Counted from the first letter of the stretch, positions 17,798 through 38,403 are shown. The stretch is 64,000 bases of DNA from Tubulanus polymorphus (GCF_964204645.1 NC_134033.1:6224231-6288230), one strand, 5' to 3'. Program-made: numbers and translations. Notes: a model not told the origin generated them from the sequence alone.

Positions 17798-19996
17798 CCC
17801 TTTTCTTTTTTTATAGGTGGTACCTAGGATACTGGGTCAAATCTTTGATTTTGGACCCCCAGCCATCGTGGACGTGACGAGCCCCTGTGTCTTGAGTCTG
17901 TGACTGTGTCGTCGTGTGCTGTGGCCGAACTCAACAAATCAAAGCCACATCCCTGAAAAGTGACCCTTAAAGACCACCCACACCCCTCATTTCGAAATAG
18001 GCATGGTGGCCTATATTTCTTTTCGGAATACTTGCTTGCGATGACAACTCCAATTTAACATCGTAATTTTAAATTCAAGTTGCGCTTACTGTGTTTGTTT
18101 TTGCCACCGGTCTCCATCTTGAATTCACCAACAAATAGGGATAGCTCCGAAACTAATCGATTCAGCCGGGTCAAATTCAAATCCTTTATTTCTCCTACCT
18201 CGCACTCGATGTTCGGTTGATTTAAGAGAAGAAAGTTGTCATAAACTAGTTGATTCCCCAAAATTCTTAAGGTACGGTTTTGTTGTCTATAACTGATTAC
18301 AGATATGATGTTAATTGGTAAACTGGGGTTATCTCATTTTTTATTTCGATGTAGACGGGTGTCGGCTCTCTGTTTTGGACCATGGATCAAAGTGTAGTAA
18401 CGGCGAATGAATTAAAATTTAGAGGGCAATTATGAGCTAGCTTGAAAGTGAAGATGTTGGGCCCTGAAAAGTTATGGTATGAAGGTCAGGTGATAGATTA
18501 GGCAGCGATGAATGTGATAGCCGGTAGGCCTAACCGATTACTACCGATCTCTAGAATTCATCGGTGAATAACCGGCAACTCTGTTCTAGAAACAACAAAA
18601 TGTATGATTTGTTTTAGGAATGAAATTAAATTGAAATGTACCGTTTAGAGTTGTTCAGTTTATTGGGTTCTGGGTTTTGGGTTAGTGTAATATTAGCTTA
18701 CGAGCGTGTTCCCTCTTGTGTCGAGGTCAGCGCGTTGTGGAGAGAATCTAGTTACTGTCGGCGGCCACCAATGTTTGCCTTGCACTTAGATAACCATGAA
18801 ATAAAAGTAGTCAGGAAGTATTAATTGCAAGAAAATATTTATTAAACACATTTTATAACAGGATATGATCTGTAGTCAAATGTGTGTCTGCCAGATGATG
18901 TTTCTTCTAGGCTGTTTATATCCTAAAAATTAAAAAAAAAACAAAAACAACGACAATAGATATTTCAATACATGTCCCCTGGACAAGAATTATTTCAGAG
19001 AGAGTCTATAAAACGTGAATACTTGATTGTACAATCTAATGGCATAGCTGTTGGCTCCAGTTGAAAAATCATTGGACAAAAGAAAAAATCAAAACAGTTT
19101 TGGCGCCAAAAAAATATGATTTGTTGCCAGGTTTGTTTACACATGTGCGCGATGCACGTGGTTATATTATTGTTTACATCTGACGTCATCGGCAGATCGC
19201 AAGCCCCGCCCCACGTGTCAATCAAATGGCTTATAGGCAAAATGTTAAAAGAACCCTACTAAAAAAACTATGCAGTGTAACAATCCGGGATTTTCGGTAC
19301 AGAATCCGACGCCAAATACCTTTCTCTTAAAGGTTTTTTGGTGTATATCGGATAAATAATGATTATGATATTCACCTCATAAAATTTGAAGTGGATTGCT
19401 TCTGATTCTGCGGACCATTGCGTAATTTTCAATGCTGCGAACGTCTCTAGATTCTCACAGGGCTTCTATGCGCTCACAAAGAATTAAGTTAAGTCACCAT
19501 ATATGTTGACACTCACCTTTAAAGAGACTTCGTACGGTCTTCTAAAGTTAACATCCACGATACAACGATTTTGAAAATGGCACTTCTGTCGATCACTATA
19601 CCCTCTACGTCATAAGCAACACGTGATGTGTGATATCACATAAACGGCGTGAAGAGCATTTTTTTCAAGAGGGCACAGCAAAAACTAACCAACAATTTTT
19701 AACCAAATTCAATCCCAACTTGAAGACACCATTTCTGATGCAGAATTTGAGGAAATCTCTAACTAACTGGCTTTAAAACGACCTGTGAATCTAGCGGCGA
19801 TGTAGAGAGGCCGCAAGCATTCCACAGAAAAGAAATCGAAGAAACAAGCCACGTAAGCGATCGTCTGATTTATCAGAGACTGATTCAGTTAGTGTCGATG
19901 ATAGTGATGATAGTAATTGGAAGATGTGGGTTTCAGATCAGAGGACGAGAGTACGACACACCACTCATCACCACAAGTAATTTTTCCCCATGATAA

Positions 19997-20338
19997 ATGG
20001 GAGATAGAAAAGCACTCTTAGCGACAATAAATAACATAATAAAACCAACAAAAAACAATTTGAAATAAAAGAAGTTAGTCGATGTTACAAAAGAAATTGA
20101 ACACAAAATATTGAAATCAGAAAAGGTAAAAACTAAATATGGAGATAAAATTTCAGCAAATTTAAGTTACTGTAATGTTAGTACAACGCGAGAATTAAAA
20201 GTATTTTTACCTGATAAATGGGTTGCATTGAGTACAGAGGAATTAAAAGATTTAGAGGGATTTAAAATAATTTACCATGGGAAAAATGAAGACGGGCATC
20301 ATGATTTAGAAGTTGTTGACAAAATAATTAAGAAATAA
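19997..20338 (+). pseudogene. Frameshifted homolog of the 108-aa protein at 36136-36462
   Basis: MGDRKAL.. start, then a frameshift; downstream KTKYGDKISANLSYCNVST..VFLPDKW is nearly identical to the inner copy. Confidence 0.8.
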
Positions 20339-20483
20339 AATAATAAAAAAAAAATAAAAAAATAAAAATAATGAATATCAAGAATCCGAAATGACTGGAC
20401 AATTCAATTGCTCCGCGTAGATAGACAAAAAGATATTCAATTAATCAAAATAAAATTATTTTTTTTGCTTTTTTTCTAAAATA

Positions 20484-20849
20484 TTAATCCATTTTTTTTA
20501 TTGTGAATTTTGGAATTTCAGAAGTATTTTCATTTTCAATAGCAGTAGTTTCAGAATTATTAATATCATAAATTTTATTTGATTTCTTATACCAACTACA
20601 CCCAATCAAAATGAATACAATTACAAGTCCAGTTGTGAAATATAAATATTTATCAAATATTCTATTACCAGGAGTAGAAATAACAATATTTTCACCATTT
20701 TTATTAACATTTTCATTATTTATTTTTTCTTTTATAGCTTTTTTAAATTCTCTGAATTTAATTCCTAATTGCCGAGACCATTCAATTTGTTTCTGAGTTC
20801 TCGATTTTTTCTTCACAGTTAATCCTTTCACCTCTTCCACTTGGCTCAT
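20484..20849 (-). CDS. Polinton small membrane protein (outer element), one TM helix
   Basis: 121-aa ORF with TAAATG start and hydrophobic YLYFTTGLVIVFILIGCSW; homolog at 34894-35276. Confidence 0.75.
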   Translation of the reverse strand: MSQVEEVKGLTVKKKSRTQKQIEWSRQLGIKFREFKKAIKEKINNENVNKNGENIVISTPGNRIFDKYLYFTTGLVIVFILIGCSWYKKSNKIYDINNSETTAIENENTSEIPKFTIKKMD

Positions 20850-20873
20850 TTATTGTAGAAAAATTTTTACTTC

Positions 20874-20953
20874 AGTAATTAGAAAAGTGGGGTTTCAGAT
20901 CAGAGGGCGTGAGGGCGAGACACCCCACTCATCACCACAAGTAATTTTTTCCC
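20874..20953 (+). repeat. Left TIR
   Basis: Exact reverse complement of 36885-36964. Confidence 0.95.
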
Positions 20954-20959
20954 TAAAAA

Positions 20960-23900
20960 ATGGGGAGAATGAACACCAACTAGAAAACAATAATGTCAAT
21001 AAAAATCAATATTATTGTCAATATTGTAAAAAATACATCGATACATCTCATAAAACACGACATGAAAAAACTGCAAATCATATAAAAAATGTAATAGATT
21101 TTGAAACTCCAGAAAATTCCAATGAAAGAAAAGAACGATTAGAAAATATGAATGTAGATGAAATAAAATGTGAAGTTTGTAACGAATTTATAGTAAAAAG
21201 GAATTATAATAGACATCTCGAATCACAAAAACATTATAAAAATTTAAATAAAAATGTTTTAGGATTAGAATATTTTGATAATAAACCACAACAAATAAAA
21301 GAATCAACTTCAAAAACAAAATCCATTTCAAATAAACCTTACATGGAAAATGTTAGAAATTATATTGATTCACTAGAAATAAAAGATACACTTGAAATCT
21401 TAGAAACATTACATAGTAAAATTGGTCCTGCAGCTATTATATTTAGATTTTTTAAAGGTACAACAATAGAAGATTATAGTAAATTTAATGAAATAATAGA
21501 AAAAATACTAGATTTTATAACAGATGTTGAATATCCAAAAATTAGTATCTCTGGGAAAGTAAGTTTTATAAAGTCAGAAGAAAAAATGCATTATAATATT
21601 CAAACACACTCTGAAGAAATAATTTCAAAAACACAAATAAAAGAGAAGTTAGAAAAAATATTTAATGAATTTAAACGTCATATTGAAGAAAGATATTTTG
21701 AGGGTTCTGGCTTAACATTGAATGAAATTATATATTTAGATTTAAATGTTTATAATACAAAAAGAAATAAAACATCAAAAAGTAATAAAATGTTTAAAAA
21801 TGATTCAAACTTTATAACAGAAAAAGATATGAAAGCATCAAGTTATATCAAATTACCATTTATAACAAAAGCAGTAATAAATATTCAAAATGAAGATAAT
21901 AAATGTTTTCTATGGTCAATTATTAGTTGCTTACATCCAACACAGGAAAATGTTTGTAGAATAACAGATTATCGGAAATATGAAACATTATATAAAATTG
22001 ATCAATATCCAGTAACTATAAAAATGATTCCTAAAATAGAAAAAATTAATAATTTAAAAATAAATGTATTCGAATTAATGCAATTACCAAAGACAAAAGG
22101 TGAAAATATTAAAGATTATACATTGGAAGCTTTATATTTAACAGAATATTATGATGATGAAAATGCTATAGATTTGTTATATTACAAAAAAGATGAAAAT
22201 GAACATTATATGTGGTTAAAACAAATTGATTTATTCTTTAGAACAACAGAAAGTGATCATCATCGTAAAATTTATCTATGTAGAAAATGTTTATCTAAAT
22301 TTATGACTGAGAATACATTACTAAAACATAAAGAATTATGTGATAATAAAGATTTTTGTAAATTAATAATGCCAACAGAAAAAGATTATAAATTGAAATT
22401 TACTAATCATAAATTTAAAAATATTGTTCCATTTGTAATTTATGGGGATTTTGAATCGTTGAATAAAGAATTAACCGATCAAGATAGAAAAGAAATATAT
22501 AACAAAAAGCAATTATTAAAATCAATGGATAAAGGAAGTGAATTAAATGAAGATATAATTCAAGACCCACCAATTATAAATACAATTAAAAAAGTTCATC
22601 AAAGAGCTGCTGCTTATGGAATTTATATAAAATCAAATTATCCTGAATTATATGAAAGTCAATATATTTCTTTTAGAGGTGAAAATGTAGTTAATGATTT
22701 TTGTGATAAAATTATTGAATTAGAAAGTGATTTTGCAAAATGATTAAACAAAAATAAAAGAATAGTTATGACAAAAGAAGATGAAATTGATTTTAATTAT
22801 GCAACTCATTGTTGTTATTGTGAAAAACGTTTTTATTCATTTGATAAAAGAGTTAGAGATCATGATCATTTAAATTCAAAATATCGTGGAGCTGCTCATG
22901 AAGATTGCAATTTACAAGCTAAAAAAGTAAATTTCGTACCAATATTATTTCATAATTTATCAGGTTATGATACTCATCTATTTATAAAACAATTATCGGG
23001 AAAATTGGGCGCAATTAATCAAGAAATAGAAGAATATAATGCTATAAATGAAGCAAATGTAAGAAAATATGATTTTAAACTATTAGCTAAAACATCTGAA
23101 AATTATATTTCATTTCAATTTGGTTGCATTAGATTTTTAGATTCTTATAGATTTCTAGCAAGTTCATTAGATAATTTATCAAAATCATTAGTTGATAATG
23201 ATTTTATTATAACTCGATATTATTATCCAAATGACCAAGATTTTAAATTATTGAGATATAAAGGCGCAATTCCTTATTCATTTTATAAAACACACGATGA
23301 TTTCAAAGAAACGAAATTATTAAAAGATCAATTTTATGATAAATTAAAAGAGGAGTATGTGAAAGACGAAGTTTTTAATAGAACATTAAATATTTGGAAC
23401 CATTTTAAGATGAAAAATCATGGTGAATTAGTTGATTTATATTTAAAATCAGATGTTATGATATTGGCTGACATATTTGAAAAGTTTAGAGAAGTTAATC
23501 TAAACCATTTTAATGTTGATCCTTGTTATTGCTACTCTAGTCCTGGTTTAACCTGGCAATGTGGTTTAAAATATACAAATGTAGAATTAGATTTATTAAA
23601 AGAACCAGATATGGTTTTATTATTTGAAAAATCAATTAGAGGTGGAATTAGTGGTGTTATGGGAGATAGGTATTTTAAAGCAAATGATGAATATAAATTA
23701 TTATATATTGACGCCAATAATTTATATGGTTGGGCAATGATGCAACCTCAACCACATAAAAATTTTATATTAACAGAAGTTGAAAATGATGATAAAACTG
23801 ATTGGGAAAGCGCAATTGTGAGTTTAAAAGATGAAGCACCAATTGGTTATTTCTTTGTAGTTGATTTAGAATATCCTGAAAATATAAAGTTTAAAACAAG

Positions 23901-24960
23901 AAACTTACCTTATTGCCCAGAACATTTAACTGTAGATGATAGTTATTTAAGTGAATACCAGAAGAAAATAAAACCGAAAGATCATGTTTTTACAGAAAAA
24001 TTAATACTTACTCAAAATAATAAATATAATTATATTGTTCATTATAGAATGTTAAAATTTTATCTAAAACAAGGAATGAAATTAAAGAAAGTACATAGAT
24101 ATATTGAATTTAATCAATCGAAGTGGTTAGAAAAATATATAGATTTCAATACTCAACAGAGAACAATATCAAAAACAGATTTTGAAAAAGATTTTTTTAA
24201 ATTGATGAATAATAGTTTTTATGGAAAAACTTGTGAGAATATTCGTAATAGAAACGACATTGAATTAGTGAATAATTATGAAAGATTAAGACACCTACAA
24301 TCAAGTCCTAGACATTTAGGAAATAAAAGGTTTGAGGATTATTTAACAGCAGTAAAATTAAAAAGAACATCCATGAAATTTAATAAACCAATATTTATAG
24401 GTTCAACCGTTCTAGAAATTTCAAAATTATTAATGTATCAATTTTACTATAATGTATTGCAACCCCATTTTGGGGAAAAACACATAGAAATCTTATATTT
24501 TGATACTGACAGTTACATATTAAAGATAAAAACTGATAACATAACAAAAGACTTAAAAACATTGAAACATTATTTTGATTTTAGCAATTACCCCAAAGAT
24601 CATGAATTGTTTAGTAATGATAATAAAAAGATTCCTGGTAAGTTTAAAGATGAATTAGGAGGTGATGAAATGATTGAATTTGTTGGGATAAGAAGTAAAA
24701 TGTATAGTTATAGAACAAAAGATCATGAAGCTAAAAAGTTAAAAGGAATAACAAAACATGTGGTTGATAAACATATAGAATTTCAAGATTATATAAAGTG
24801 TTTATATAAATCAATTGTAATGAAACACAAAATGAATTGTTTAAATTCAGAAGATCATGAGATGTACATTAATGAAGTTGAAAAAACTAGTTTAAATCCA
24901 TTTGATGATAAAAGGCATATTTTAGATGATGGTATAAAAACATTACCTTATGGCCATTAA
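20960..24960 (+). pseudogene. Protein-primed family B DNA polymerase (pPolB), disrupted
   Basis: N-terminal C2H2-type fingers, INIQNEDNKCFLWSI, ExoI YGDFES, DHDH..YRGAAHEDCN, ExoII FHNLSGYD, ExoIII YLKSDV, Pol motifs YIDANNLYG, KLMNNSFYGK and YFDTDS. In-frame TGA at 22741-22743 joins the 618-aa and 730-aa ORFs. A 1-nt deletion just after ATG 20960 is inferred from the copy at 36877. Confidence 0.93.
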
Positions 24961-26258
24961 AACATAAAATCAATATCATCATACTCGAAATCACTATTGT
25001 CTTCTTCATTTTCATTTAATTGTTCAGGTTCTTCTTCCATTCCATTTTTCTCATTTAAATAAAGTTCTATCTTGTTCCACATTTCATCTCGCTCTCTTTG
25101 TTTCTTTTTGTTTGTTAATTCATCAAATGGAATTATAATATCTAGGTTTAAATAATTTACAATCTTATTTAAAAAGAATTCATAATTTATTGAATCTGTT
25201 ATTCTATTTTCCAAATGATACATTAATATTTGTTTGAATATTTTTTTTATATTTTTCATATCTTCTTCTGTTAATTTAGGTTTTTCATAATAATCGTTAA
25301 ATAATAAATATAAATACATTTTCTTTTGTTTTGTGTTAAATGTTGGTGGAATAATTGTTTTTATAATATCTTTTTTAGTTATTTCACCATTTTTATTTTC
25401 TATTATTTTCATTTTTTCAAGCCATTGCATATATTCTGGTGTATGATCTTCTATAGAAAATATTTTAAAAATTTCATCAAGATAATTTAATTTTGGATCT
25501 ATAAGAAAATTTCTAGTTTTTTCTTCATCCCATAAATTCTTTTGCCATCCACAATCAACACAAAATAACACAGTTCCTTCTTGTCTTAAGGTCGCATAAC
25601 TACATTGTGGACATTTTCGTTTATAATTTAATGGTAATAGATCTTCATTAAGCTCTTGGTATTTTCTTACGTTTTCTTTATGTTTTATTGTTCTATTATG
25701 TAGATTTGAATTACTTGTTGTAATAATCAATTTACAATATTTACAATAATATGTTTTTCTTGTTAATTCATTATATTGTTTTTCTAACTTTTCAACTGTT
25801 TCTTCATTATCTGGTAACGTTTTCTCATATTTTATTTTTTCTAATAAATTATTTTTTCTTTCATTGAATTCAGTTTCAAATTTATTAGAAATTTTATCTA
25901 TATGTGCTTTACGAAATTGATGATTCTCCCAATCTTCTTTATTATCAGGGATGTATTTCATTCGACAAGGCTCGCAGAAATTATTCTTTACATTATCCTT
26001 ATCATAAAATAAGGAAGGTCTTTTCCAAATAACTTCAGGTTCAACTTCAACAGAATTACTATCAACATTAGCTGTTGCGCCATTAATTCTACACTTCTCT
26101 GAATGTTTTTTAACATAATTTCTTGAGAATAATTTATTACATTTTGGACAGTTTAGTTTAGGGGGTTTATAATTTTCATTATGTTTTTTCATATGTCGAG
26201 CCATATTACTTTTTCTTAGAAGTTCACCACAAATTTCACATGCTATCTTCTCATCCAT
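24957..26258 (-). CDS. Multi-zinc-finger protein with C-terminal VLTF3 (poxvirus A2)-like late transcription factor domain
   Basis: C2H2 fingers, then Zn ribbon CPQC..EGTVLFCVDCG, then PKLTEEDMKNIKKIFKQI..INYEFFLNKIVNYL..KKKQRERDEMWNKI, which matches the VLTF3 C-terminal pattern as I recall it; acidic tail. Confidence 0.7.
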   Translation of the reverse strand: MDEKIACEICGELLRKSNMARHMKKHNENYKPPKLNCPKCNKLFSRNYVKKHSEKCRINGATANVDSNSVEVEPEVIWKRPSLFYDKDNVKNNFCEPCRMKYIPDNKEDWENHQFRKAHIDKISNKFETEFNERKNNLLEKIKYEKTLPDNEETVEKLEKQYNELTRKTYYCKYCKLIITTSNSNLHNRTIKHKENVRKYQELNEDLLPLNYKRKCPQCSYATLRQEGTVLFCVDCGWQKNLWDEEKTRNFLIDPKLNYLDEIFKIFSIEDHTPEYMQWLEKMKIIENKNGEITKKDIIKTIIPPTFNTKQKKMYLYLLFNDYYEKPKLTEEDMKNIKKIFKQILMYHLENRITDSINYEFFLNKIVNYLNLDIIIPFDELTNKKKQRERDEMWNKIELYLNEKNGMEEEPEQLNENEEDNSDFEYDDIDFMF

Positions 26259-26272
26259 TTATTAGGGGAAAA

Positions 26273-26292
26273 AATTACTTGTGGTGATGAGT
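26273..26292 (-). promoter_or_regulatory. Invariant 20-bp box ACTCATCACCACAAGTAATT upstream of non-structural genes (one of six copies)
   Basis: Identical copies at 19963-19982(+), 20927-20946(+), 26273-26292(-), 35992-36011(-), 36477-36496(-) and 36892-36911(-), each 13-14 nt before an ATG. Confidence 0.8.
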
Positions 26293-26315
26293 GTAATTTT
26301 TTTATGTTATAAATA

Positions 26316-27074
26316 ATGGTAGAATTAAAAGAATACAGAATATATGTTGATTCTAGAAAACTTACAAATTATAAATCACATAATTTACTAGTACAATTAG
26401 ATAGAGAATTTAAGAATTGTGTAGATTTAAAATTAGTTAATATAAGTTTATGTAATTCTTTTTATAATATATCGGATAAAACTTTCGAACATAGAGGTTT
26501 TGCAATTCATATGAAAAATAAAAATAAATGGTTTTATCTAATGTTAAAACCAGGGTTATATAATTTAGAAACATTAGCCCAAGAAATTAATCGGAGAGCA
26601 CGATTAAAACTTGGAAGTGAATATAAATTTTCAATTAGATTTATAAAAAGTGATAGTTCTGATAAAATTAAAATAAAGTTAGATGATGAAAGCAAACATG
26701 CATTTATGGTAAGGAAACCTTTAGCTAAACTGTTAGGAATTAAACCACAAATTGTTACAGGAAACGTAGACGGTAATTCAAATATAATACCTTTTACACA
26801 TTTTTATATTTATTGCAATTTAATCGATCCTACAAAAACATTTGAAGCAACTAAAGATACAACATGTAATTCTGGTTTACTAAACATTTTACCATTGAAG
26901 AATGTTAAACAATTTGGAACGCAAATAAATTATAATTTAACAGAATGTGATTTTAAACCTTGCATTCCTCATTTTAATAATTTTAGATTAGAAATAAGAA
27001 ATCATAATGGATACTTAATTGATTTAAATAACTTTCCTGTGATATATGAATTAGTTATAAGATGTAGAGAGTAA
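26316..27074 (+). CDS. Minor capsid (penton, single jelly-roll) protein
   Basis: IYVDSR, NSFYNI, PGLYNLETL, FYIYCNLI, LLNILP, LEIRNHNGYLIDLNN: the typical Polinton/virophage mCP pattern. Confidence 0.75.
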   Translation: MVELKEYRIYVDSRKLTNYKSHNLLVQLDREFKNCVDLKLVNISLCNSFYNISDKTFEHRGFAIHMKNKNKWFYLMLKPGLYNLETLAQEINRRARLKLGSEYKFSIRFIKSDSSDKIKIKLDDESKHAFMVRKPLAKLLGIKPQIVTGNVDGNSNIIPFTHFYIYCNLIDPTKTFEATKDTTCNSGLLNILPLKNVKQFGTQINYNLTECDFKPCIPHFNNFRLEIRNHNGYLIDLNNFPVIYELVIRCRE

Positions 27075-27090
27075 TTTTTTTGATATATAA

Positions 27091-27447
27091 ATGAATATAA
27101 CTGTTGGACCGAGTATATGTTTTGGATTTGATTTTAAACGTGAGAAAGAAATGAAATTTAATATTAATGATGTAATAACACATATCAAAAATGTTGTATT
27201 TTCTAATGAAACAACATTTGAGTATGAAACAACAATAGATAAAGAAACTTTAAATGTAGAAAAGATTACTAATTTAATTAGAGAATCTTTAAGATTTTAT
27301 GAATTAGATGAAGATTTTATCATCGATGATATTAAAAAAATAATAATTGAAATATATACAAATGAAACTAGTAATGAAATAAATGTTGAAATAATCATCA
27401 CTAAGATAACTAAATATTTTGATGATAGTAATTTTTTTGATAAATAA
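27091..27447 (+). CDS. Hypothetical acidic Polinton protein
   Basis: 118-aa ORF with TAAATG start, tightly packed in the gene array. Confidence 0.7.
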   Translation: MNITVGPSICFGFDFKREKEMKFNINDVITHIKNVVFSNETTFEYETTIDKETLNVEKITNLIRESLRFYELDEDFIIDDIKKIIIEIYTNETSNEINVEIIITKITKYFDDSNFFDK

Positions 27448-27669
27448 ATGAGTGATAATAAGTGGATAATAACTGGATTATATAATGGTGCATTACTATC
27501 AGTTGGAACTGTTGGTTATTCAATGCTATTAAAAAAAGTATTCAAAATGGGAAGTGTTAATGTTGATAGATTTGATATAAATGATATTTTAAAGTTAACA
27601 TTAGCAGTTACTTTATCTAATTTAACTATTGATTATTTGGAAAAACAAAAATATATTCCTCCCATATAA
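27448..27669 (+). CDS. Small hydrophobic Polinton protein
   Basis: 73 aa; stop/start junction TAA-ATG; two hydrophobic segments. Confidence 0.7.
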   Translation: MSDNKWIITGLYNGALLSVGTVGYSMLLKKVFKMGSVNVDRFDINDILKLTLAVTLSNLTIDYLEKQKYIPPI

Positions 27670-27693
27670 ATACATAATTTTTTTGCTAAATAA

Positions 27694-28116
27694 ATGGCTT
27701 CTGCAATTATAACTATTATAGGATCGGCAATTGTTAACGCTTTAGCATTTACTGGTGGTGGTTATTTATTTAAACATATTGATAAAAATAGTTCATTAGG
27801 AGAACAAAGAAGACATAATTTAGCGTTAGAGAAATATAATAAAGATGCAGAAGAATATAGAGAAAAGAGACAAAACTATATGGATTACATCAATAAAGAA
27901 TTATATGATCAAAAGATTTCACATAGAGATTTTCAATCAGTTGATGATGCAATGAGTTTATATAACGCGGTAACCAATAAAGAAAAATTACATCTATACA
28001 AACCTAAATTATCAGATTATTATACCCCAAGTAAAGAACAACAGAAATATGAAATAATATGGATTTTAGGTGGAACAGTTATTGTTATATTTGTTGCTTA
28101 TAAGTTTACTAATTAG
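27694..28116 (+). CDS. Polinton membrane protein (N-terminal hydrophobic segment, coiled coil, C-terminal TM)
   Basis: MASAIITIIGSAIVNALAFTGGGYLF..EQRRHNLALEK..IIWILGGTVIVIFVAY. Confidence 0.75.
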   Translation: MASAIITIIGSAIVNALAFTGGGYLFKHIDKNSSLGEQRRHNLALEKYNKDAEEYREKRQNYMDYINKELYDQKISHRDFQSVDDAMSLYNAVTNKEKLHLYKPKLSDYYTPSKEQQKYEIIWILGGTVIVIFVAYKFTN

Positions 28117-28135
28117 TAATTTTTATTCTAAATAA

Positions 28136-28570
28136 ATGGAAGATAAAGTTGATAGTATTGATATTATTCCTCATGATATAAATAAAACTAAATTAAAAAC
28201 ATATTTAGAAAAACAAATATTAGAATTTGAAAGTGACTTAAAGATAAAAAAGAAAAAATATTTAAAAAGTAAAATTATATATTATTTGATTATCAGTGGT
28301 TCGGTTACAATTAGTTCTGTAATAACATTTCTAGCAATATTCAGTCCATTAACACCTTTAGCTATATCAATTGGTGTATTAGGATTAAGTTCAAGTGTTT
28401 TAACCGGTATAAGTTCAAAATTAAATATAAAAAGTAATAAAGAAAAAATTAAAACTAATATAAAAGAAATTAATAAATTAAAGAACACACTAGATTATAT
28501 AATAAGTTTAAATGGTTATATAACAGTTGAAGAACAAGATAAATTATTAAAAGAATTAATAAATTATTAA
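28136..28570 (+). CDS. Polinton two-TM protein
   Basis: 144 aa with a central hydrophobic hairpin IIYYLIISGSV..LTGI flanked by Lys-rich helices. Confidence 0.75.
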   Translation: MEDKVDSIDIIPHDINKTKLKTYLEKQILEFESDLKIKKKKYLKSKIIYYLIISGSVTISSVITFLAIFSPLTPLAISIGVLGLSSSVLTGISSKLNIKSNKEKIKTNIKEINKLKNTLDYIISLNGYITVEEQDKLLKELINY

Positions 28571-28586
28571 TTTTTTAGTTATATAA

Positions 28587-29915
28587 ATGGGGTTTCCAAA
28601 AGCTTTCCAATATAATAAATCAATTAAATATAATATTCCGGCAATAGATTTTAAGAAAAATATTACATATAAAAATATAGTTTTAAATTCATTAACTAAT
28701 TTAGAAATTTATGTTAATGAATCACAGTTTTTTATTTCTAAAATGGAAAATATATTTAATACATATGAAGTTACTTTTACTCGAGATGAATATCATAAAT
28801 ATAAAGTAAAATCTAATATGAAATATTGGCAGAACCAATTAGATTTTGCTGTTTATTGTGCAACAACAGGATGTGGAATTAGTTGGAATGATCATTTGAA
28901 TAACTTAGATAAAAATTTAAAGTATTCTGATTTAAAATTAATTCACACAATATTTAGATTTCACACATATTTTCAAATCAGAATAATATTAAATGAATTA
29001 GAATGTCCTTTACCCGGGTCTAAATATTTCAAAGAATTGGATAATAATATTAATATATCCAAGTTTTATAAAATATGTAATGAATTTAATATAAATATTA
29101 ATTCCGATTTTAGAGCGCATGGTAAATTGCAAGGTGTTGGTGAAGAGTTTGAAATAAAAAGAATTGATTATATGCATAGAATTTCAGCTTATCATAATTA
29201 TAAAATTGATAATAATAATGGTTGGGTTTATTTTATTTTAGAAAATAGTGAAGGTTTTACAAAATCAGGTATACAAAGAATAAATCAATCTATTAGAATT
29301 TATTTGATATGTATTTTAGGCGCTCAAGTTGAAACAAGATCCCCAATAATTGGAAATGATAACACTTCATTCGATGCACAGAAACAGTTTAAAGTTTTAT
29401 TTGAAGATTCCATACATGATGATGAAAATAGATCGATTCCAGAAAACATTATAAGATATCAAAATTATTTAGATAAATCTCATGTAAGACTTAATTATTG
29501 TATAGGCCCTAATCTATTAATTATTTCTAATGATTTAGTATTAAAGATGGGAAATATAATTGGTTATAATAATCTAATTAAAACTGCAACAATAAATAAT
29601 TCATTTGGGTTAAATGATATAAATAAAAAGATAATTACTGCTCCAAAATTAATGGAAGGTGAAAAAAATAAAAAACATATTCAATCAACTGAAACTAAAA
29701 CTAAGAATATTAAATTAAATAATGATTCTAAAATAAAAGATTATAATACATCAGAAAATATTAGAACTGATAATGGTGCCATATGGCACCCACACGGTGA
29801 TATTCAACATGATGTAATTAAACTAAATGATGATAATAAATTCCATGAAAATACTAAATTAGCTATAACTTGTATAGGAATTGTTATAGGAGGAATATTA
29901 TATTTTAAATTTTAA
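28587..29915 (+). CDS. Hypothetical Polinton protein with C-terminal membrane anchor
   Basis: 442-aa intact ORF; YWQNQLDFAVYCATTGCGISW; C-terminal LAITCIGIVIGGILYF. Confidence 0.8.
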   Translation: MGFPKAFQYNKSIKYNIPAIDFKKNITYKNIVLNSLTNLEIYVNESQFFISKMENIFNTYEVTFTRDEYHKYKVKSNMKYWQNQLDFAVYCATTGCGISWNDHLNNLDKNLKYSDLKLIHTIFRFHTYFQIRIILNELECPLPGSKYFKELDNNINISKFYKICNEFNININSDFRAHGKLQGVGEEFEIKRIDYMHRISAYHNYKIDNNNGWVYFILENSEGFTKSGIQRINQSIRIYLICILGAQVETRSPIIGNDNTSFDAQKQFKVLFEDSIHDDENRSIPENIIRYQNYLDKSHVRLNYCIGPNLLIISNDLVLKMGNIIGYNNLIKTATINNSFGLNDINKKIITAPKLMEGEKNKKHIQSTETKTKNIKLNNDSKIKDYNTSENIRTDNGAIWHPHGDIQHDVIKLNDDNKFHENTKLAITCIGIVIGGILYFKF

Positions 29916-29931
29916 TTTTTTTATTATATAA

Positions 29932-31362
29932 ATGGATGTAGAAGGTGGAGAAGATATTGGAATGGATAATTTTGATGAACCTGGTATAACTGATGAACAA
30001 CCACCTGATTTTGATGAAACAAGTTTTAATGATGGTAATGAACCAGAATATAACAATAATTTAAATATGCCTGATTATATTAAAAATGCTGAATCACAAT
30101 TAAATCCTGAAAATTTAGACCCAGATTTAGTAAAACAAGATTTAGATAATTTAAACAAAATACCTAAATTAGAAGATTTAATTGAAAAATCTAATTTTAA
30201 CATAAATGATGAAGACGTTGGACTTTTAGCAGATCAATTAAAATTTTTAGATAATGGTAAATGTTATTATCGTTTGAAAGGTGATTATTATATTGATATC
30301 ACTTATAAAAATAATAAAAATAAAATATTATCAGAATCAACTTTAGAAAAATTAAAACCAGATAGAATTAAAATAATAAGTAATAGTAATGAAATAACTG
30401 ATGTTACACAAAAAGAAATAGATGATAATATAGATGTATTTAAACAAAGAATTAATGAATTATTTGAAATAATCAAAAAGAAATCAGAAACAGAAACAAC
30501 TTCTGAACAGAATATAACTTCCAAAAATAGTAAACATAGATCAAATAAAGTTCCAATTGAAAAACTTTTACCGAATGGATTACTTGATGCAACAGATCAA
30601 GAATTAGAAGATTTAGATATATTTTCTGATAAAGCAATTAGAGAAATTATTAGTATAAGACTTGCATCTGATAAAATTGAACATAATAAAAGTATAAGAG
30701 ATTTTAAAATTAGAACTTTAGAAAAAGAATTAACTGATAAAAATAAAGAAATAGAACAATTAAAGTCTGATTTATATCATCAAGTAATTGATGAAATAGA
30801 ATATAGGCAAAAAGAATTACGTTTAGAAAAAGAAATTAGTAATTTAAAAGATAATTTAGAAGTACAGAAAGAAGAAATTAAATTATTGTTAAAATCATAT
30901 GATTATAATATTAATAGATTAAAAGTTATTTTTAAAGATTTGTTGATTAAACCAAATTCTGAAATATCATTAAAAGACAGGATAAAGTTATTATTTAAAT
31001 TAGAAGGAATAACAATTCTTTCAATTCTAACAGCTGTTACTATGTTATTTACAACAATAGGTTTAGCTATATCAAATGCTTTAAAATCTACTCCTACTCC
31101 CAATAAACCAGATAAACCTCCAGGAAATAATTCTATACAAGATAAAGTTAAAGATGGTTTAAAGAAATTAGCAAAATATTTATGGGAACTATCTAAAAAA
31201 TCTGCTGCAGCATTACCAGGAGTTATTGCTTCAATTGTTGGTTTTGTTTTAAAATCTGCAGGTAATATTCTTAACTTTGCTGCTGAACATATTATTTTAT
31301 TTTTAATCACAGTTGTAAGTGCTATTATTTTTGGGTTAGTAAATATGATTAAAAATAAATAA
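29932..31362 (+). CDS. Coiled-coil protein with C-terminal TM segments
   Basis: 476 aa; acidic N-terminus, long heptad region, hydrophobic ITILSILTAVTMLFTTIGLAI and IILFLITVVSAIIFGLV. Confidence 0.8.
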   Translation: MDVEGGEDIGMDNFDEPGITDEQPPDFDETSFNDGNEPEYNNNLNMPDYIKNAESQLNPENLDPDLVKQDLDNLNKIPKLEDLIEKSNFNINDEDVGLLADQLKFLDNGKCYYRLKGDYYIDITYKNNKNKILSESTLEKLKPDRIKIISNSNEITDVTQKEIDDNIDVFKQRINELFEIIKKKSETETTSEQNITSKNSKHRSNKVPIEKLLPNGLLDATDQELEDLDIFSDKAIREIISIRLASDKIEHNKSIRDFKIRTLEKELTDKNKEIEQLKSDLYHQVIDEIEYRQKELRLEKEISNLKDNLEVQKEEIKLLLKSYDYNINRLKVIFKDLLIKPNSEISLKDRIKLLFKLEGITILSILTAVTMLFTTIGLAISNALKSTPTPNKPDKPPGNNSIQDKVKDGLKKLAKYLWELSKKSAAALPGVIASIVGFVLKSAGNILNFAAEHIILFLITVVSAIIFGLVNMIKNK

Positions 31363-31382
31363 TTAATTTTTTTGTTAAATAA

Positions 31383-32630
31383 ATGAGTGGGAGTTATATA
31401 AGTCCTTCTAAGATTTCTAGAATATCTAATGCTATTAAAGCAGAAAGATCACATCATATAATTACTCATAACCCTTCAAATATTAATCCCGATGAAACTT
31501 TATACGTTAGAATCCCTCGATTAACACAAAATACTTTTTATGTTCCAAACAGTATTTATTTATCAGCTGATATAAAAGTAATCGGTAATAATAATAATTA
31601 TGTCGTTGATAATGTTGGAAGATATTTGATTAAAAAGTTAACAATAAAGATTGGTCCAGAAACAGTTTTCTCATTAGATGATTATAATTTATTTATGCAC
31701 TATAAAGATTTATGGTTAACTAAAGAAAATAGAAATAATATGATATTTCAAGGCATCCAATCAGAAAACCAAAATAAATTAAGATCAGAAGCTAATAGCG
31801 CAATATTAACAAATGATGTAGATAAATTGATAAAAAGTATATATGGAAGCAAATATAAAATTCCATTAGACTTTGAATTGATAAATAATAATGCACCTTT
31901 ATATAAATACGCAATTCAAGAAGATATTATATTTGAGATAACATTTGCTCCTGTAAATGAAATTGTATTATCTAGTGTTGTTAAAGATATGAGTTATAAA
32001 TTATCGAATATATGTTTAGAATATGATACAGTAACTGATGAAAATATTGCTAGAACAATTCAAACTCAATACAATCAAGGATTTTCATTATTATATGATT
32101 ATATTGATAAATTTAAAACTGTAACTATTAATGCAAATGATGAAATAATTAATGAGAATATTAACTTCCCTAGAAGATCTATTAAAGGTATATTAATATT
32201 TTTTACCATTGGAACGTATACTAATGGCGCAATAAATGTTGACAATTATTATAATCCTGAAATAACAAAAGTAGAAATAACTATCGAAGGAATAGCGAAT
32301 AAAATATTTTGCCAAGGAATGAGAATGATTGATCAATGGCCAGAAATTAGAAAACATTTTATGAATGAAAAAGTAAAATCATTTGAAAATTGTAATATTA
32401 ATCAAATTGATTATTATACCGGTAATAAATATGCATTATGGTTAGATTTTAGAACAACAGAAGATAATTCATTACATGGTTCTGGAAAAAACCTACAGAA
32501 CACTAAAGATGGAATACAATTATTCATGAAAAAGAATAAAGGAATCAAAAATTTTAAAATGCACATTTATATTATATCTGACGCGCAATTAAATATTGTA
32601 AATTCACAATTAGATAGTATTCAATATTAG
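31383..32630 (+). CDS. Major capsid protein (double jelly-roll), putative
   Basis: 415-aa beta-rich ORF (HNPSNINPDETLYVRIP..YKIPLDF..NICLEYD..KYALWLDFR); size and position next to the integrase fit a Polinton MCP. Confidence 0.75.
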   Translation: MSGSYISPSKISRISNAIKAERSHHIITHNPSNINPDETLYVRIPRLTQNTFYVPNSIYLSADIKVIGNNNNYVVDNVGRYLIKKLTIKIGPETVFSLDDYNLFMHYKDLWLTKENRNNMIFQGIQSENQNKLRSEANSAILTNDVDKLIKSIYGSKYKIPLDFELINNNAPLYKYAIQEDIIFEITFAPVNEIVLSSVVKDMSYKLSNICLEYDTVTDENIARTIQTQYNQGFSLLYDYIDKFKTVTINANDEIINENINFPRRSIKGILIFFTIGTYTNGAINVDNYYNPEITKVEITIEGIANKIFCQGMRMIDQWPEIRKHFMNEKVKSFENCNINQIDYYTGNKYALWLDFRTTEDNSLHGSGKNLQNTKDGIQLFMKKNKGIKNFKMHIYIISDAQLNIVNSQLDSIQY

Positions 32631-32660
32631 AAATATAAAGTTAAAATTAAGGATATATAA

Positions 32661-33788
32661 ATGAGTGGTAAAAAAACTCCTAATACTAAAGAACAATATT
32701 TAAGAAATTTATATTACAACCCTGAGAGTTCGGTTGCTTATTCTTCTACTAAAAATATATGGCGTAAAGTAAAACAAGATAAATTAGATAAGATAATCCC
32801 ACAAAATTTAGTTAAATATAAAGATATAAATGAATTTATGTTAGAACAACCAACGTATACAACACATAAAAAAATTGTTAGAAAATATAAAACTCGTAAA
32901 ACTATGGTAAGTTATGTAGATCAACAGTGGCAAGGAGATTTAATTGATATGAAAAATGTTAAGAAAGATAATGATGATTATTGGTGGTTATTGAATATAA
33001 TTGATATTTTTAGTCGTTATGTATGGAGCTTCCCACTTTATAGAAAAGATGCTGCACAAACATCACATGTTTTAAGAAAATTTCTTTCAGGTGGTAAACT
33101 AAAACCAGAAAAAATTCAATTTGATGATGGAAAAGAATTTGATAATTCATTAGTTCATGGACTTTTAGATTTTCATAATATTAAATATTTTTCAACAAAA
33201 TCGGATAAAAAAGCAGCAGTTGTTGAACGATTTAATAGAACATTAAGAACAAGAATGTGGAAATATTTTACAGCAAATAATACTTTTAAATGGATTGATG
33301 TTTTACCAAAATTGATAGAAGGATATAATAATTCCTATCATTCTTCTATTGGAATGAGACCTATTGATGCTAGAAAATCTGAAAATGCTGAAATTGTTTG
33401 GAATAATTTATATGGAGCATTTCTTGTTGATGATTTTGGTGAACCTAAATTTAAAGTTGGTCAAAATGTTAGAATTTCTAAGTATAAAAAGATATTTGAT
33501 AAAGGATACGATCGAAATTTTACTAGAGAAATATATAAAATAAAAAAGGTAATAACAACAAAACCATATGTCTATAAATTAGAAGATTTAGATGGTGAAG
33601 AAGTTGATGGATATTTTTACGAAGAAGAATTAAGTTTAACTACTGAAAATCTAGAACAAGAATATAAAATTGAAAAAGTATTAAAAACAAAAACTATTAA
33701 AAGAAAAAAATATTCTTTAGTAAAATGGGTTGGATGGCCAGATAAATTTAATGAATGGATATTATCAAGTAAAATTAAAAATATATAA
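32661..33788 (+). CDS. Retroviral-type (rve) DDE integrase with C-terminal chromodomain
   Basis: QWQGDLIDM, IDIFSRY, IQFDDGKEF, VVERFNRTL, YNNSYHSSIGMRP; chromodomain YKIEKVL..LVKWVGWPDKFNEWI; ORF intact. Confidence 0.95.
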   Translation: MSGKKTPNTKEQYLRNLYYNPESSVAYSSTKNIWRKVKQDKLDKIIPQNLVKYKDINEFMLEQPTYTTHKKIVRKYKTRKTMVSYVDQQWQGDLIDMKNVKKDNDDYWWLLNIIDIFSRYVWSFPLYRKDAAQTSHVLRKFLSGGKLKPEKIQFDDGKEFDNSLVHGLLDFHNIKYFSTKSDKKAAVVERFNRTLRTRMWKYFTANNTFKWIDVLPKLIEGYNNSYHSSIGMRPIDARKSENAEIVWNNLYGAFLVDDFGEPKFKVGQNVRISKYKKIFDKGYDRNFTREIYKIKKVITTKPYVYKLEDLDGEEVDGYFYEEELSLTTENLEQEYKIEKVLKTKTIKRKKYSLVKWVGWPDKFNEWILSSKIKNI

Positions 33789-34037
33789 ATGAATAAGGAA
33801 TTATTCATATTTGAGCCTCATAATATGTTAATTTCTGGTGTAACAAATTGTGGAAAAACTTATTTTATATTACATTTATTAGAAACTGTTTATGAAAACT
33901 ATTTTGATAAGATAGTATTATTTTGTCCAACATATGAATTTAATCAAACTTATGATAAAAATATTACTAGGAATAATAAATTTATTATATTAGATCCTAA
34001 AACAGTAAAAGAACAAAAGATCAAAATTACTATTTAG
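33789..34037 (+). pseudogene. A32/FtsK-like packaging ATPase, truncated after Walker A
   Basis: MLISGVTNCGKT Walker A and IVLFCPT; the ORF ends at 82 aa with no Walker B. Confidence 0.8.
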
Positions 34038-34074
34038 ATTACAACACCCATTTAAATATGAATTTATTTAAATT

Positions 34075-34325
34075 CAATTAGTTTGTTAATCTAGTTGAAT
34101 TCTAGTTATTGGTAGTTGTAACAAAAATCAAATAGATTTAACAATATTTTAACTAGCTTGTTAATCTAGTTACATTCTAGTTACATTCTAGTTGAATTCT
34201 AGTTGTTAATAGTTGAAACAAAAAATCAACTAAATTTAACAAGAAATAAACAAAAACAACAATATTTCAACTAGCTTGTTAATCTAGTTGAATTCTAGTT
34301 ACATTCTAGTTAAATTCTAGTTGCA
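34075..34325. repeat. Tandem 10-bp (AATTCTAGTT/CATTCTAGTT) array in ~3 higher-order blocks
   Basis: Repeated TCTAGTTGAAT/TCTAGTTACAT units, preceded by (AACTAGC)TTGTTAATCTAG. Confidence 0.75.
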
Positions 34326-34356
34326 ACATCACACAATTAATTTTTTTGTTATATAA

Positions 34357-34947
34357 ATGGTAGGTGAAAAGAAAATAAAATCTAAAAATGGTGATGTTCC
34401 AATTGAAAAAACTTTAGATAATTTAGGAATAACAGAAACAAAATTAACTCCAGATGATGGTGCTTTAAATAATGTTACAACAAATAATAATTATGAATAT
34501 TATCTTTATTGTAAACATCAATTAGAAATATTAATAGCATCTGGAAAATGTAAAAATTTTGTCAGTAAAAATTTAACTTATAATGAATTAGACACAATGA
34601 AATCAGATGAAATTATTAGATTATTTAAGATTTATGAAGCCGCGAGAACAGCTAGAATTAATGATGCGATATCAGAAAATGTAGTAAAAGGTTATAGTAA
34701 ATTATGTAATTATATACTACCAATTGAAGATGAAAATAGATTATATTCCGATTTAAAAATGATTATTTAGTTATGACTGAATTAAATAAATGGATTGGAT
34801 ATTTATCATTTCAATTAGGTGGATTTATGACATTATTATCAACTGGAGTTATAACATTTTCAAATATTGAAAGTAAAAATATTTCTATAATAAATGAACA
34901 AGGTGGAAGAAGTGAAGAAAAAACCGAGAACTCAGAAACAAATTGAA
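34357..34947 (+). pseudogene. Polinton protein with C-terminal hydrophobic segment; 1-nt frameshift near 34755
   Basis: Restoring one A in TTAAAAATG extends the 137-aa ORF through ..WIGYLSFQLGGFMTLLSTGVITFSNIE.. Confidence 0.65.
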
Positions 34948-35276
34948 TGGTCTCGGCAATTAGGAATTAAATCACAAGAATATAAAAAGCTGTAAAAGAA
35001 AAAATGAGTAATAAAAATGTTAATAAAAATGGTGAAAATATTGTTATTTCTACTCCTTCTGATAGTAGAATATTTGATAAATATTTATATTTTACAGTTG
35101 GATTTGTAATTGTATTCATTTTGATTGGGTGTAATTGGTATAAGAAATCAAATAAAATTCATGATATTAGTAATTCTGAACCAACTGCTATCAAAAATGA
35201 AAGTACTTCTGAAATTCCAAAATTGACAATAAAAAAATGGATTAATATTTTAGAAAAAAAGCAAAAAAATAATTGA
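34894..35276 (+). pseudogene. Homolog of the 20484-20849 membrane protein, with homopolymer frameshifts
   Basis: TAAATG start MNKVEEVKKKPRTQKQIEWSRQLG; A-run shifts at ~34985 and ~35235 relative to the outer copy. Confidence 0.75.
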
Positions 35277-35281
35277 ATATC

Positions 35282-35977
35282 TCACTGCGGAGCAATTAAA
35301 TTGTCTAGATAAGTCATTTCGGATTCCTCAACGTATCGTTCATTATTTGGATTATTGTTCCATTGATCAATAAATTTCTTTGCTTTTGTTAACTGTTCTG
35401 AATATAACTGTAAATTTAGTTTATTAGATTTGGTTTGATTTTCTTTCTTTTCTAAAGGTCTTAAATTTTTCCAACCCCAAATAAGTTTTTTATCGTATTC
35501 ATCATTCATGTTAAATTTAGATATTGGTAACACGTGATCAATATGATAATAATCCCCATAATTATCTATATTCATTTTATCATCGAATTGAAATATAATC
35601 CATGATTTGAGAAATTCATCTGAACAACCCAATAAATTAGATAGTGTTTCTGAATGCGTTTCTTTGTTGAATAATTGTGTTAATCTAGACCTTAAGCATT
35701 GTTTCAATCTAAAATTAAGATCTGTTTGATATCTTTCTCTCATATATTTTGTCATATAATAATTATAATGTTTTATATTATCTTCTCGATATTGTTTGGT
35801 GTATAGTTTAGCACAAGTTTTACAACAATTTTGAAAACCATCTTTGCTAATCTTACGCTTACTAAATTCTGTTATAGCTAATTTATCTAATTCACATTTA
35901 GAACACTTCTTGTAGTATATGTTTATAACGCCAGTGTTATTTGTAATATTGATAATTTGTGGTTGTTCTGGTTCCAT
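35282..35977 (-). CDS. HNH endonuclease (NCLDV-type, N-terminal Cys cluster)
   Basis: KKCSKC..F..KDGFQNCCKTC; LLGCS..M..DNYG..HIDHVLP..W.NLRPL..EN.TKSNK. Confidence 0.85.
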   Translation of the reverse strand: MEPEQPQIINITNNTGVINIYYKKCSKCELDKLAITEFSKRKISKDGFQNCCKTCAKLYTKQYREDNIKHYNYYMTKYMRERYQTDLNFRLKQCLRSRLTQLFNKETHSETLSNLLGCSDEFLKSWIIFQFDDKMNIDNYGDYYHIDHVLPISKFNMNDEYDKKLIWGWKNLRPLEKKENQTKSNKLNLQLYSEQLTKAKKFIDQWNNNPNNERYVEESEMTYLDNLIAPQ

Positions 35978-36135
35978 TTAGTAGGAAAAAAAATTACTTG
36001 TGGTGATGAGTATGAAAAAAAATAATTGAATATCTCACTACTTTTGTCTATCTATGTGGAGCAATTAAATTGTCCAGATAAGTCATTTCGGATTCTAGAT
36101 ATTCATTATTTTTATTAATTTATTTTTTTTAAAAT

Positions 36136-36462
36136 TTAATCAACAATTTCTAAATCATGATGGCCATCTTCATTTTTTCCATGATAGATTATTTTAAATC
36201 CTTCTAAATCTTTTAATTCCTCTGTACTCAATGAAACCCATTTATCAGGTAAAAATACTTTAAATTCTCGTGATGTACTAACATTACAGTAACTTAAATT
36301 CGCTGATACTTTCTCTCCATATTTAGTTTTTATCTTTTCTAATTTCAATATTTTATGTTCAATTTCTTTTGTAACATCAACTAACTTTTTTATTTCAAAT
36401 TGTTTTTTTGCTGGTTTTATTCTGTTATTTATTGTTGCTAAGAATGCTTTTCTATCTCCCAT
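36136..36462 (-). CDS. Small basic protein, possibly OB-fold ssDNA-binding (function inferred)
   Basis: 108 aa; KIKTKYGEKV..FKVFLPDKW..IIYHGK; conserved in the outer copy. Confidence 0.65.
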   Translation of the reverse strand: MGDRKAFLATINNRIKPAKKQFEIKKLVDVTKEIEHKILKLEKIKTKYGEKVSANLSYCNVSTSREFKVFLPDKWVSLSTEELKDLEGFKIIYHGKNEDGHHDLEIVD

Positions 36463-36699
36463 TTATAAGGAAAACAAATTACTTGTGGTGATGAGTGGGG
36501 ATTACTTCCCCTATATAACAAGCACGCTATTAACCGTTCTCACCCAAGCCTCACAGCATCTATTTATCTGGGTACAGTTGACACGCAATCACTGTACTAC
36601 AGTAATAGCACACACATTAATAACCGTTCTCAGTAGAGACTCACTGTATCGATCTATCCACACGCAGCTGTTGTTACGCGCACTCACTGTTTATGTGTG

Positions 36700-36877
36700 T
36701 CACAATTTTACTACGTAATATTTCTAAAATTTCAATTGTATCTTTTATTTCTAGTGAATCAATATAATTTCTAACATTTTCCATGTAAGGTTTATCGATG
36801 TATTTTTTACAATATGGGCAATAATATTGATTTTTATTGACATCACTTTTTTCTGTTTGGAACTCACTGTCTCCCAT
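36700..36877 (-). pseudogene. Diverged, internally deleted copy of the pPolB 5' end, extending the right TIR
   Basis: MGDSEFQTEKSDVNKNQYYCPYCKKYID fused to KPYMENVRNYIDSLEIKDT, matching 20960-21040 plus 21333-21420. Confidence 0.85.
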
Positions 36878-36884
36878 TTATTAG

Positions 36885-38280: not shown

Positions 38281-38284
38281 TTTT

Positions 38285-38345: not shown

Positions 38346-38403
<58 letters not shown>

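Follow-up and report, generated by a model that had tools for sequence, protein, structure and literature searches.

A Maverick insertion in Tubulanus polymorphus with poxvirus-type late promoters and a VLTF3-like gene: a probable virophage-like element

Which RNA polymerase transcribes an integrated virus that carries none of its own? The question is raised by a Maverick/Polinton element in 64,000 nucleotides of DNA from Tubulanus polymorphus (GCF_964204645.1 NC_134033.1:6224231-6288230; this whole stretch is called the window below). Nearly every gene of the element starts with TAAATG behind a T-rich tract, one gene encodes a protein resembling VLTF3 (A2), a late transcription factor of poxviruses, and a Pfam scan matched none of the element's open reading frames (ORFs) to an RNA polymerase family, in agreement with the preliminary description of this DNA, in which no such gene was visible. 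Pfam scans of 24 window ORFs and 19 related ones likewise showed no subunit of a poxvirus polymerase. No virion or life cycle has been shown for animal Mavericks (10.64898/2026.06.19.733378), and the locus bears on the open question of whether they are self-sufficient nuclear viruses or satellites of larger viruses; a 25-bp motif common to a whole clade makes the satellite question testable. We favour, with a rough probability of 0.6, the reading that an unseen poxvirus-like virus, co-infecting the cell, supplies the RNA polymerase that transcribes the element, which would be its virophage-like satellite.

The start-codon motif

The preliminary description named 15 starts that read TAAATG. All 15 do, and two more were found at 36877 (minus strand) and 19997 (plus strand). 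Two of the named starts do not open full genes of the element: the one at 34894 opens only 33 codons because its gene is broken, and the one at 20849 is part of an older copy in which the element now lies. The enrichment over background that had been proposed as a check was observed: TAA precedes 15 of the 19 ORF first ATGs, as against 35 of the 629 other ATGs in 19950-36990 (79% versus 5.6%; Fisher p 7e-15). Of the four exceptions, three (21148, 22768 and 35004) are ATGs inside broken genes; at the fourth, 26316, the whole motif is present, with TAAAT placed three bases before the ATG. A second TAA stands at -19 in 14 of the 15 TAAATG starts, versus 1 of the 35 TAAATG that are not starts, which makes the signal bipartite with a fixed spacing. 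The pattern TAAWWTT-N9-TAAATG occurs 14 times in the window, always in or at the element (0.26 expected from shuffles). Two window starts take their TAA from the stop codon of the preceding gene, and TAAATG is not depleted inside genes (23 versus 23.4). The T-run was also considered as the early-gene terminator TTTTTNT and rejected as too weak, with 10 copies in coding strands against 16 expected and 4% of 300 shuffles as low.

The insertion spans 20874-36964 (16,091 bp, or 16.1 kb), more than the 24957..34360 first proposed, and several of its genes are broken. Its features are as follows.

20874..21043, plus strand: left terminal inverted repeat, containing the box CTCATCACCACAAG and a variant late-type promoter before the DNA polymerase gene
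21148..24960, plus strand: protein-primed DNA polymerase, broken (the second ORF matches Pfam DNA_pol_B_2 at E 3.6e-19; in relatives the gene is one ORF of 930-1300 residues)
24957..26258, minus strand: VLTF3/A2-like late transcription factor, 433 residues
26256..26293, minus strand: late-type promoter of the VLTF3-like gene, a copy of the terminal repeat's inner end (repeat family D10)
26316..27074, plus strand: conserved gene of 252 residues, probably a minor capsid protein, with the promoter variant TAAATAATG (homologues in 6 loci; weak PDB profile match, E 0.084)
27072..28570, plus strand: four small genes (118, 73, 140 and 144 residues), each behind a T-run and TAAATG; the 144-residue protein is weakly SLATT-like (Pfam SLATT_fungal, E 0.005)
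28587..31362, plus strand: two conserved genes (442 and 476 residues), function unassigned, motif before each; homologues in 28 and 30 ORFs of related loci
31383..32630, plus strand: putative major capsid protein, behind the motif (Pfam Capsid_N, E 0.016; no PDB profile match)
32661..33788, plus strand: retroviral-type integrase with chromodomain (Pfam rve, E 4e-9; Chromo, E 8e-4), with an A-rich form of the motif upstream
33789..34037, plus strand: A32-type packaging ATPase (Pox_A32, E 7e-6), truncated to 82 residues (204 in relatives)
34357..35276, plus strand: two conserved genes with starts at 34357 and 34894, motif before each, both frameshifted in this copy
35282..35977, minus strand: zinc-binding, HNH-like protein of 231 residues, with a copy of the terminal-repeat promoter upstream (its relative in locus L001 has a weak Pfam HNH match, E 0.0055)
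36136..36462, minus strand: gene of 108 residues, with a copy of the terminal-repeat promoter upstream; homologue in locus L003
36703..36964, minus strand: right terminal inverted repeat, in which TAAATG stands at 36877 and a short leftover of the polymerase 5' end is preserved

Ten consecutive plus-strand genes are separated by 0-30 bases, and a single promoter class stands before replication, integration, structural and regulatory genes, that of the VLTF3-like protein included. The box CTCATCACCACAAG is found at 19964, 20928, 26291, 36010, 36495 and 36910; it precedes the polymerase, VLTF3-like, HNH-like and 108-residue genes, which seem to have been captured at the element's end along with its promoter.

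To follow the motif beyond this copy, we counted the starts of ORFs homologous to window genes in 83 loci (an alignment of 46 capsids fetched the best 80 of 221 metagenome loci, and 3 came from genome assemblies). In the 16 loci with a capsid identity of at least 50%, TAAATG stands at 50 of 60 homologous starts (background 100/2327). The remaining 67 loci have it at 1 of 271 starts, and the five AT-rich ones among them at 0 of 17. The 50% cut was picked post hoc and was checked with a capsid tree (quick search, 75 rows, loci with capsid ORFs below 330 residues excluded), in which all 14 TAAATG rows, together with locus L015, fall in one branch with a support of 98 in the Shimodaira-Hasegawa-like approximate likelihood-ratio test (SH-aLRT). 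Two GC-rich members of this clade, L007 (44% GC) and L008 (40% GC), have the motif at three of four starts each. At -3, T is present in 51 of 60 clade starts and a purine in 180 of 237 distant ones, and stop-start fusion accounts for 1 of 61 clade starts. Since GC-rich members keep TAAATG, AT-rich outsiders lack it and T occupies -3, composition and translation context fail to explain the motif. Furthermore, gene order and orientation vary within the clade while the motif remains at each start.

The resemblance to poxvirus late promoters is close. In vaccinia, a T-rich core lies 5-7 bp before TAAAT(G/A), with a conserved T ten bases upstream (PMC5294985, PMC11980589), and initiation inside the AAA with slippage is established (PMC6211774, PMC7163114). 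The element, known from its sequence, has the same T-rich core, 5-7 bp spacer and TAAAT overlapping the start codon. T is found at -12 in 90% and at -13 in 72% of 61 clade promoters, the former within one base of the conserved T of vaccinia (PMC11980589). The strict window pattern gave 49 matches in IMG/VR, most of which open no gene; 5 of the 10 downstream frames scanned (at least 67 residues) are Pox_A14 starts, that is, chordopoxvirus A14 promoters. TAAATG also begins 9 of the 19 ORFs among those listed for locus L084, which we take, from its Pfam matches, to be entomopoxvirus-type. The poxvirus late-promoter architecture originally proposed is thus borne out in its spacing, its T-run, the TAAATG at the start and the recurrence of the pattern at Pox_A14 starts.

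Several other elements were encountered in this survey. L138:1-9034 (38% GC) is a second TAAATG-wired element, with the motif at all 7 main genes and at 11 of its 328 ATGs in total. Its ATPase is only about 25% identical to that of the clade and its integrase 42% identical to the window's; the integrase is preceded by about 140 residues that look adenovirus-type protease-like by eye and have no Pfam match. TAAATG wiring may go with the type of integrase, or it may have more than one origin. Among the capsid relatives closest to the clade but outside it (L014, L019, L044, L051 and L058, with L014 and L058 perhaps a single element and L052 omitted because it nearly duplicates L051), 18 of 26 genes have TATA no more than 16 bases from the start codon, versus 83 of 1025 ATGs; the figure in distant loci is 41 of 237. 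This near-start TATA resembles the late initiator of African swine fever virus, TA(+1)TA with short leaders (PMC7163114). Together with L138, this lineage suggests that promoter mimicry may be widespread in animal Mavericks. L136 is a virophage with a Sputnik-type capsid and a polymerase 38% identical to the element's; among the ORFs listed for it, TAAATG opens none. The capsid homologues P0047 and L081-L083 come from assemblies labelled bacterial or archaeal, where they are probably contaminants of eukaryotic origin. No relative of the capsid, of the VLTF3 alignment or of the integrase was found in IMG/VR.

The VLTF3-like protein

We considered whether the 433-residue protein is indeed a late factor of the VLTF3 family, as first proposed. 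It consists of N-terminal C2H2/U1-type zinc fingers, a zinc ribbon and one helical cyclin-like domain (about residues 205-405). The CxxC ribbon had been pointed out before, and its four cysteines are invariant in an alignment of relatives. Zinc ribbon and helical domain are shared with vaccinia A2; unlike A2, the protein has about 200 additional N-terminal residues carrying the zinc fingers, and its own gene lies behind a late-type motif.

Several comparisons agree on the homology. In Atlas, 27 of 30 neighbours lie in Pox_VLTF3 clusters (score 0.94). A search of 1.8 billion protein representatives gave four matches, three of them unnamed relatives and the fourth P0125, the only match of a known family (Pox_VLTF3 and A2L_zn_ribbon), which is 63% identical to a gene of L084. 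phmmer aligned P0125 over query residues 10-195 (E 5.5e-5), a profile of the two poxvirus-type sequences alone (P0125 and L084) matches the window protein at E 1e-7, and BLAST gave 36% identity over 74 residues. The structure model had a predicted local distance difference test (pLDDT) score of 81, and its top named Foldseek matches were the A2 proteins of cowpox and two entomopoxviruses (E 6e-6 to 6e-5). A single-sequence model was poor (pLDDT 47); its top match was again cowpox VLTF3, weakly (E 0.025). PDB sequence searches gave nothing significant, and word-seeded searches with the VLTF3 domain nothing new. These comparisons of sequence and models indicate that ORF 24957-26258 encodes a VLTF3/A2 homologue fused to extra zinc fingers, with poxvirus A2 as its best non-Polinton match.

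A likeness to TFIIB, which had been suggested along with that to VLTF3, is weak in the models. In a comparison with solved structures, the helical part, which has a single repeat, matches cyclin B1 at Z 6.2 and TFIIB-family chains at Z 4.9-6.0 (5iy6_M: Z 6.0, root-mean-square deviation 4.8, 92 aligned; 7o4i_M: Z 5.7, deviation 15.3, 131 aligned).

VLTF3 and TAAATG were expected to co-occur in related elements, and they do so in at least one other. An end-truncated ORF of L003 shares 98.6% identity across 143 residues with P0127, which belongs to the cluster of the VLTF3-like P0122, and this second TAAATG element therefore carries the gene. A VLTF3 profile run over the 83 capsid loci found no domain (best E 0.026); the clade contigs are short and L003 stops before the domain, which makes absence uninformative there, and the long loci outside the clade may be incomplete. 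The shorter VLTF3-like protein P0124 and the clade capsid P0023 both come from contigs of 12,994 bases, probably one contig; if so, VLTF3 is present in a second subclade. Next to the VLTF3 gene of L003, behind TAAATG, lies a deoxynucleoside kinase (10340-10981; Pfam dNK, E 1.7e-31), a cargo typical of large DNA viruses. In DNA reads, the VLTF3-like gene of the window is covered at about one third of the depth of the capsid gene and many reads break off at 26315, so many copies may lack it from there, with mapping bias as a possible contribution.

VLTF3 had been described as foreign to the Polinton core. This was overstated: it has been reported in a polintovirus subgroup of stony corals, where it was read as exchange with giant viruses (PMC11131425, which cites Krupovic and Koonin 2016), and also from some Polinton-like and MELD viruses (10.64898/2026.06.19.733378, PMC8502044). 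The coral viruses resemble the element, going by their description, in carrying the homologue; the word 'promoter' is absent from the main text of PMC11131425.

Which polymerase reads the promoters

The preliminary description left two possibilities, a cytoplasmic giant virus as helper or redirection of host RNA polymerase II by the element's own TFIIB-like protein. The motif and the factor both point to the former and, instead of any cytoplasmic giant virus, the helper can be taken more narrowly to be poxvirus-like. The host branch is the weaker, because the VLTF3-like gene itself lies behind the late motif and its TFIIB likeness is weak. We infer that nothing in the element can start the programme and that post-replicative machinery from outside would therefore have to. 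The element would stay silent until the helper enters its post-replicative phase. The helper's polymerase would then start within the AAA of TAAATG, and slippage would make a short poly(A) leader; 16-30 bp between genes would therefore suffice as promoters, and both the unfavourable T at -3 and the tiny intergenic gaps would be explained. Since the gene of the element's own factor depends on this promoter class too, the factor cannot set the programme off; it could act as an accessory booster or competitor of late transcription, perhaps steered to element DNA by its extra zinc fingers. Polymerase, capsid and integrase would then yield particles and new insertions. Multiplication of the element is thus likely confined to cells infected by a poxvirus-like virus that lends its transcription machinery, and the element's way of life is probably that of a virophage.

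Several observations weigh against this reading. No helper virus was seen with the element, the family is multicopy in its host, which has to be reconciled with helper dependence, and the route from a nuclear integrated copy to a cytoplasmic polymerase is unexplained; by analogy, mavirus poses the same question and is activated nonetheless. Locus L015 lies inside the clade and scores 0 of 2 exact starts, with TAAATG four bases ahead of its called capsid start. Short spacing between divergent genes (24-30 bp between starts in L009-L013), tried as a diagnostic and rejected, is also found in elements without the motif. The five Pox_A14 matches represent one orthologous promoter. As to the factor, the Pfam model Pox_VLTF3 (PF04947) misses the protein and its Polinton-type relatives P0122-P0124 at E up to 0.1, other giant-virus VLTF3 follow the poxvirus ones closely in the structure search (from E 1.6e-4 versus 5.8e-6), the alignment behind the better model held one poxvirus-type row (P0125) and may favour poxvirus matches, and the donor is not established by a tree. 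Finally, TAAAN initiators also occur in yeast cytoplasmic linear elements (PMC6211774).

The last point belongs to the alternative that survives best, although we regard it as unlikely: a helper that is not a poxvirus and yet has a poxvirus-like polymerase in the cytoplasm, be it another large DNA virus or a linear element, in the manner of yeast pGKL2 serving pGKL1. The yeast initiators show slippage as well (PMC6211774), VLTF3 proteins of other giant viruses also match the structure model, and a literature search on poxviruses in marine invertebrates found no paper. Yet the overlap of TAAATG with the start codon and the T-run six bases upstream are those of poxvirus late genes, and the best matches in sequence and structure are poxvirus A2.

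Somewhat less likely still is an element autonomous in the nucleus, in which VLTF3, with its zinc ribbon and cyclin-like fold, replaces TFIIB and acts with TBP to recruit the host's polymerase II to the A/T tract and TAAAT. TFIIB-family chains are indeed among the top structural matches, the protein has extra zinc fingers predicted to be of a DNA-binding type, and the family has multiplied to many copies in its host. However, such Z values are also usual for common helical arrangements, cyclins reach them as well, and the protein has one cyclin-like repeat only. Besides, the VLTF3-like gene would need the very promoter it serves. By the Kozak rule, T at -3 is unfavourable for translation, and it would give a poor context here unless left out of the mRNA. 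Gaps of 0-30 bp are too small for ordinary polymerase II promoters and leaders, and no A1- or G8-like partner was recognised by Pfam among the element's ORFs.

A relic state is improbable: promoters and VLTF3 would be left over from an earlier time of helper dependence, and the family would now spread in the nucleus as a transposon, by read-through or weak host transcription. The broken polymerase and ATPase of this copy would fit, as would the low read depth over the VLTF3-like gene. The motif, however, persists at new sites where genes have been shuffled, over a range of capsid identities (50-76%) and GC contents (20-44%), and it is also present in L138 with its distant ATPase, which points to continuing selection. 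The weakest alternative, TAAATG as a by-product of AT-richness, translation context or stop-start coupling, can draw on a composition of about 77% AT and on two window starts and one clade start that reuse the previous gene's stop, and is largely refuted by the 5.6% background against 79% at starts, by the GC-rich members and AT-rich outsiders and by the upstream element at a fixed distance.

The proposed dependence on a poxvirus-like helper has a precedent in mavirus, which is integrated, carries late promoters of the CroV type and is switched on by infection (10.1101/068312). Mavirus with CroV, and Gezel-14T, share with the element the scheme of an integrated small DNA virus with helper-copied promoters; they differ in having protist hosts, Mimiviridae-type helpers and a virophage capsid, whereas the element belongs to the Mavericks of animals and combines a poxvirus-type motif with a late factor of its own. 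Unlike vaccinia, it has no A1, G8 or RNA polymerase that Pfam recognises. Polinton-like viruses from entomopoxvirus occlusion bodies have been proposed as poxvirus hyperparasites on the strength of their presence there (PMC11296320). By their description they are Maverick-related, with one lineage in the mavpol2 capsid clade and a turnover of end genes like that seen here; the main text of that paper contains none of the words 'transcription', 'motif', 'VLTF' or 'upstream'. A literature search for Polintons with TAAATG, late promoters or a poxvirus helper did not find the wiring described in titles or the beginnings of abstracts. The presence of VLTF3 in polintoviruses is already known.

If the favoured reading holds, a poxvirus-like virus is to be expected in this host; the reading also suggests that an animal germline has an inducible defence of the mavirus type. 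More tentatively, animal Mavericks could include whole lineages of endogenous 'poxvirus virophages' whose promoters are readable as a helper code, one clade with poxvirus late promoters and a captured A2 re-aimed by zinc fingers, and its nearest relatives with a near-start TATA as in African swine fever virus. If true, germline Mavericks would be inducible antiviral elements of animals and would point to undiscovered poxvirus-like and asfarvirus-like viruses of invertebrates.

Class membership and host site

The element is a Maverick by membership: it has the polymerase, the integrase, terminal inverted repeats with a 6-bp duplication and the A32 ATPase. With Mavericks/Polintons (Polintoviricetes, 'adintoviruses'; PMC8502044, 10.64898/2026.06.19.733378) it also shares probable capsid genes, candidates for a double jelly-roll major and a single jelly-roll minor protein, and an animal host. 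Unlike them, it has a late-type promoter before nearly every gene, a pox-like VLTF3 and no cysteine protease that was found: Pfam recognised no such family, the adenovirus-type protease of Group 1 Maverick-Polintons included, among the element's ORFs. The missing protease and the SLATT-like gene would fit Group 2. Pfam found no Sputnik_MCP match in the element; the same scan detects this family in L136. The putative capsid gene has 925 homologues and is flanked in related loci by ATPase, integrase and polymerase genes; L003 carries a full-length A32 ATPase (E 5e-11). In the present copy the polymerase and ATPase genes are broken, as are those that start at 34357 and 34894. For the 108-residue protein, Atlas gave a likeness to the phi29 single-stranded DNA-binding protein (score 0.87), a lead only.

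Both strands begin with the termini AGTAATTAG (AG..CT ends at 20874 and 36964), TACTTC on either flank is the 6-bp target-site duplication, and DNA reads show loose ends at 20874. Left and right ends are 91% identical over 172 nt and 96% over a further 93 nt. The GC content is about 23%, versus about 39% in the left host flank. The insertion lies in the end part of an older inverted copy of its own family, 84-88% identical to the element's right part, with its terminus at 19912; the same stretch carries on in the right flank. The surroundings are as follows.

19912..20873, resuming at 36965 to about 37035: older inverted copy (end part), the host site of insertion
42493-43626, 58515-59474, 62778-63719 and 37173-38486: host flank with two intronless rhodopsin-family receptors, a long terminal repeat (LTR)-type integrase remnant (DUF5641) and a probable long interspersed nuclear element (LINE) remnant

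The two receptor genes identify the host as an animal. Parts of the stretch are contained in 6 of 12 sequencing runs, none recorded as RNA, and the family is multicopy judging by DNA reads labelled with the same species, which are mostly 90-99% alike. In one run of unknown kind (X1; window 19000-36050), single-variant contigs reach a depth of about 3,500-4,600, versus 590-670 in the flank, and the same variant makes up about 4-6% of the reads in a DNA run (X7). The variant may represent a copy that replicates or is strongly expressed; contig depth does not give a copy number. Short tandem and direct repeats rich in CTAGTT (families D9 and D12) follow the truncated ATPase at 34073-34334.

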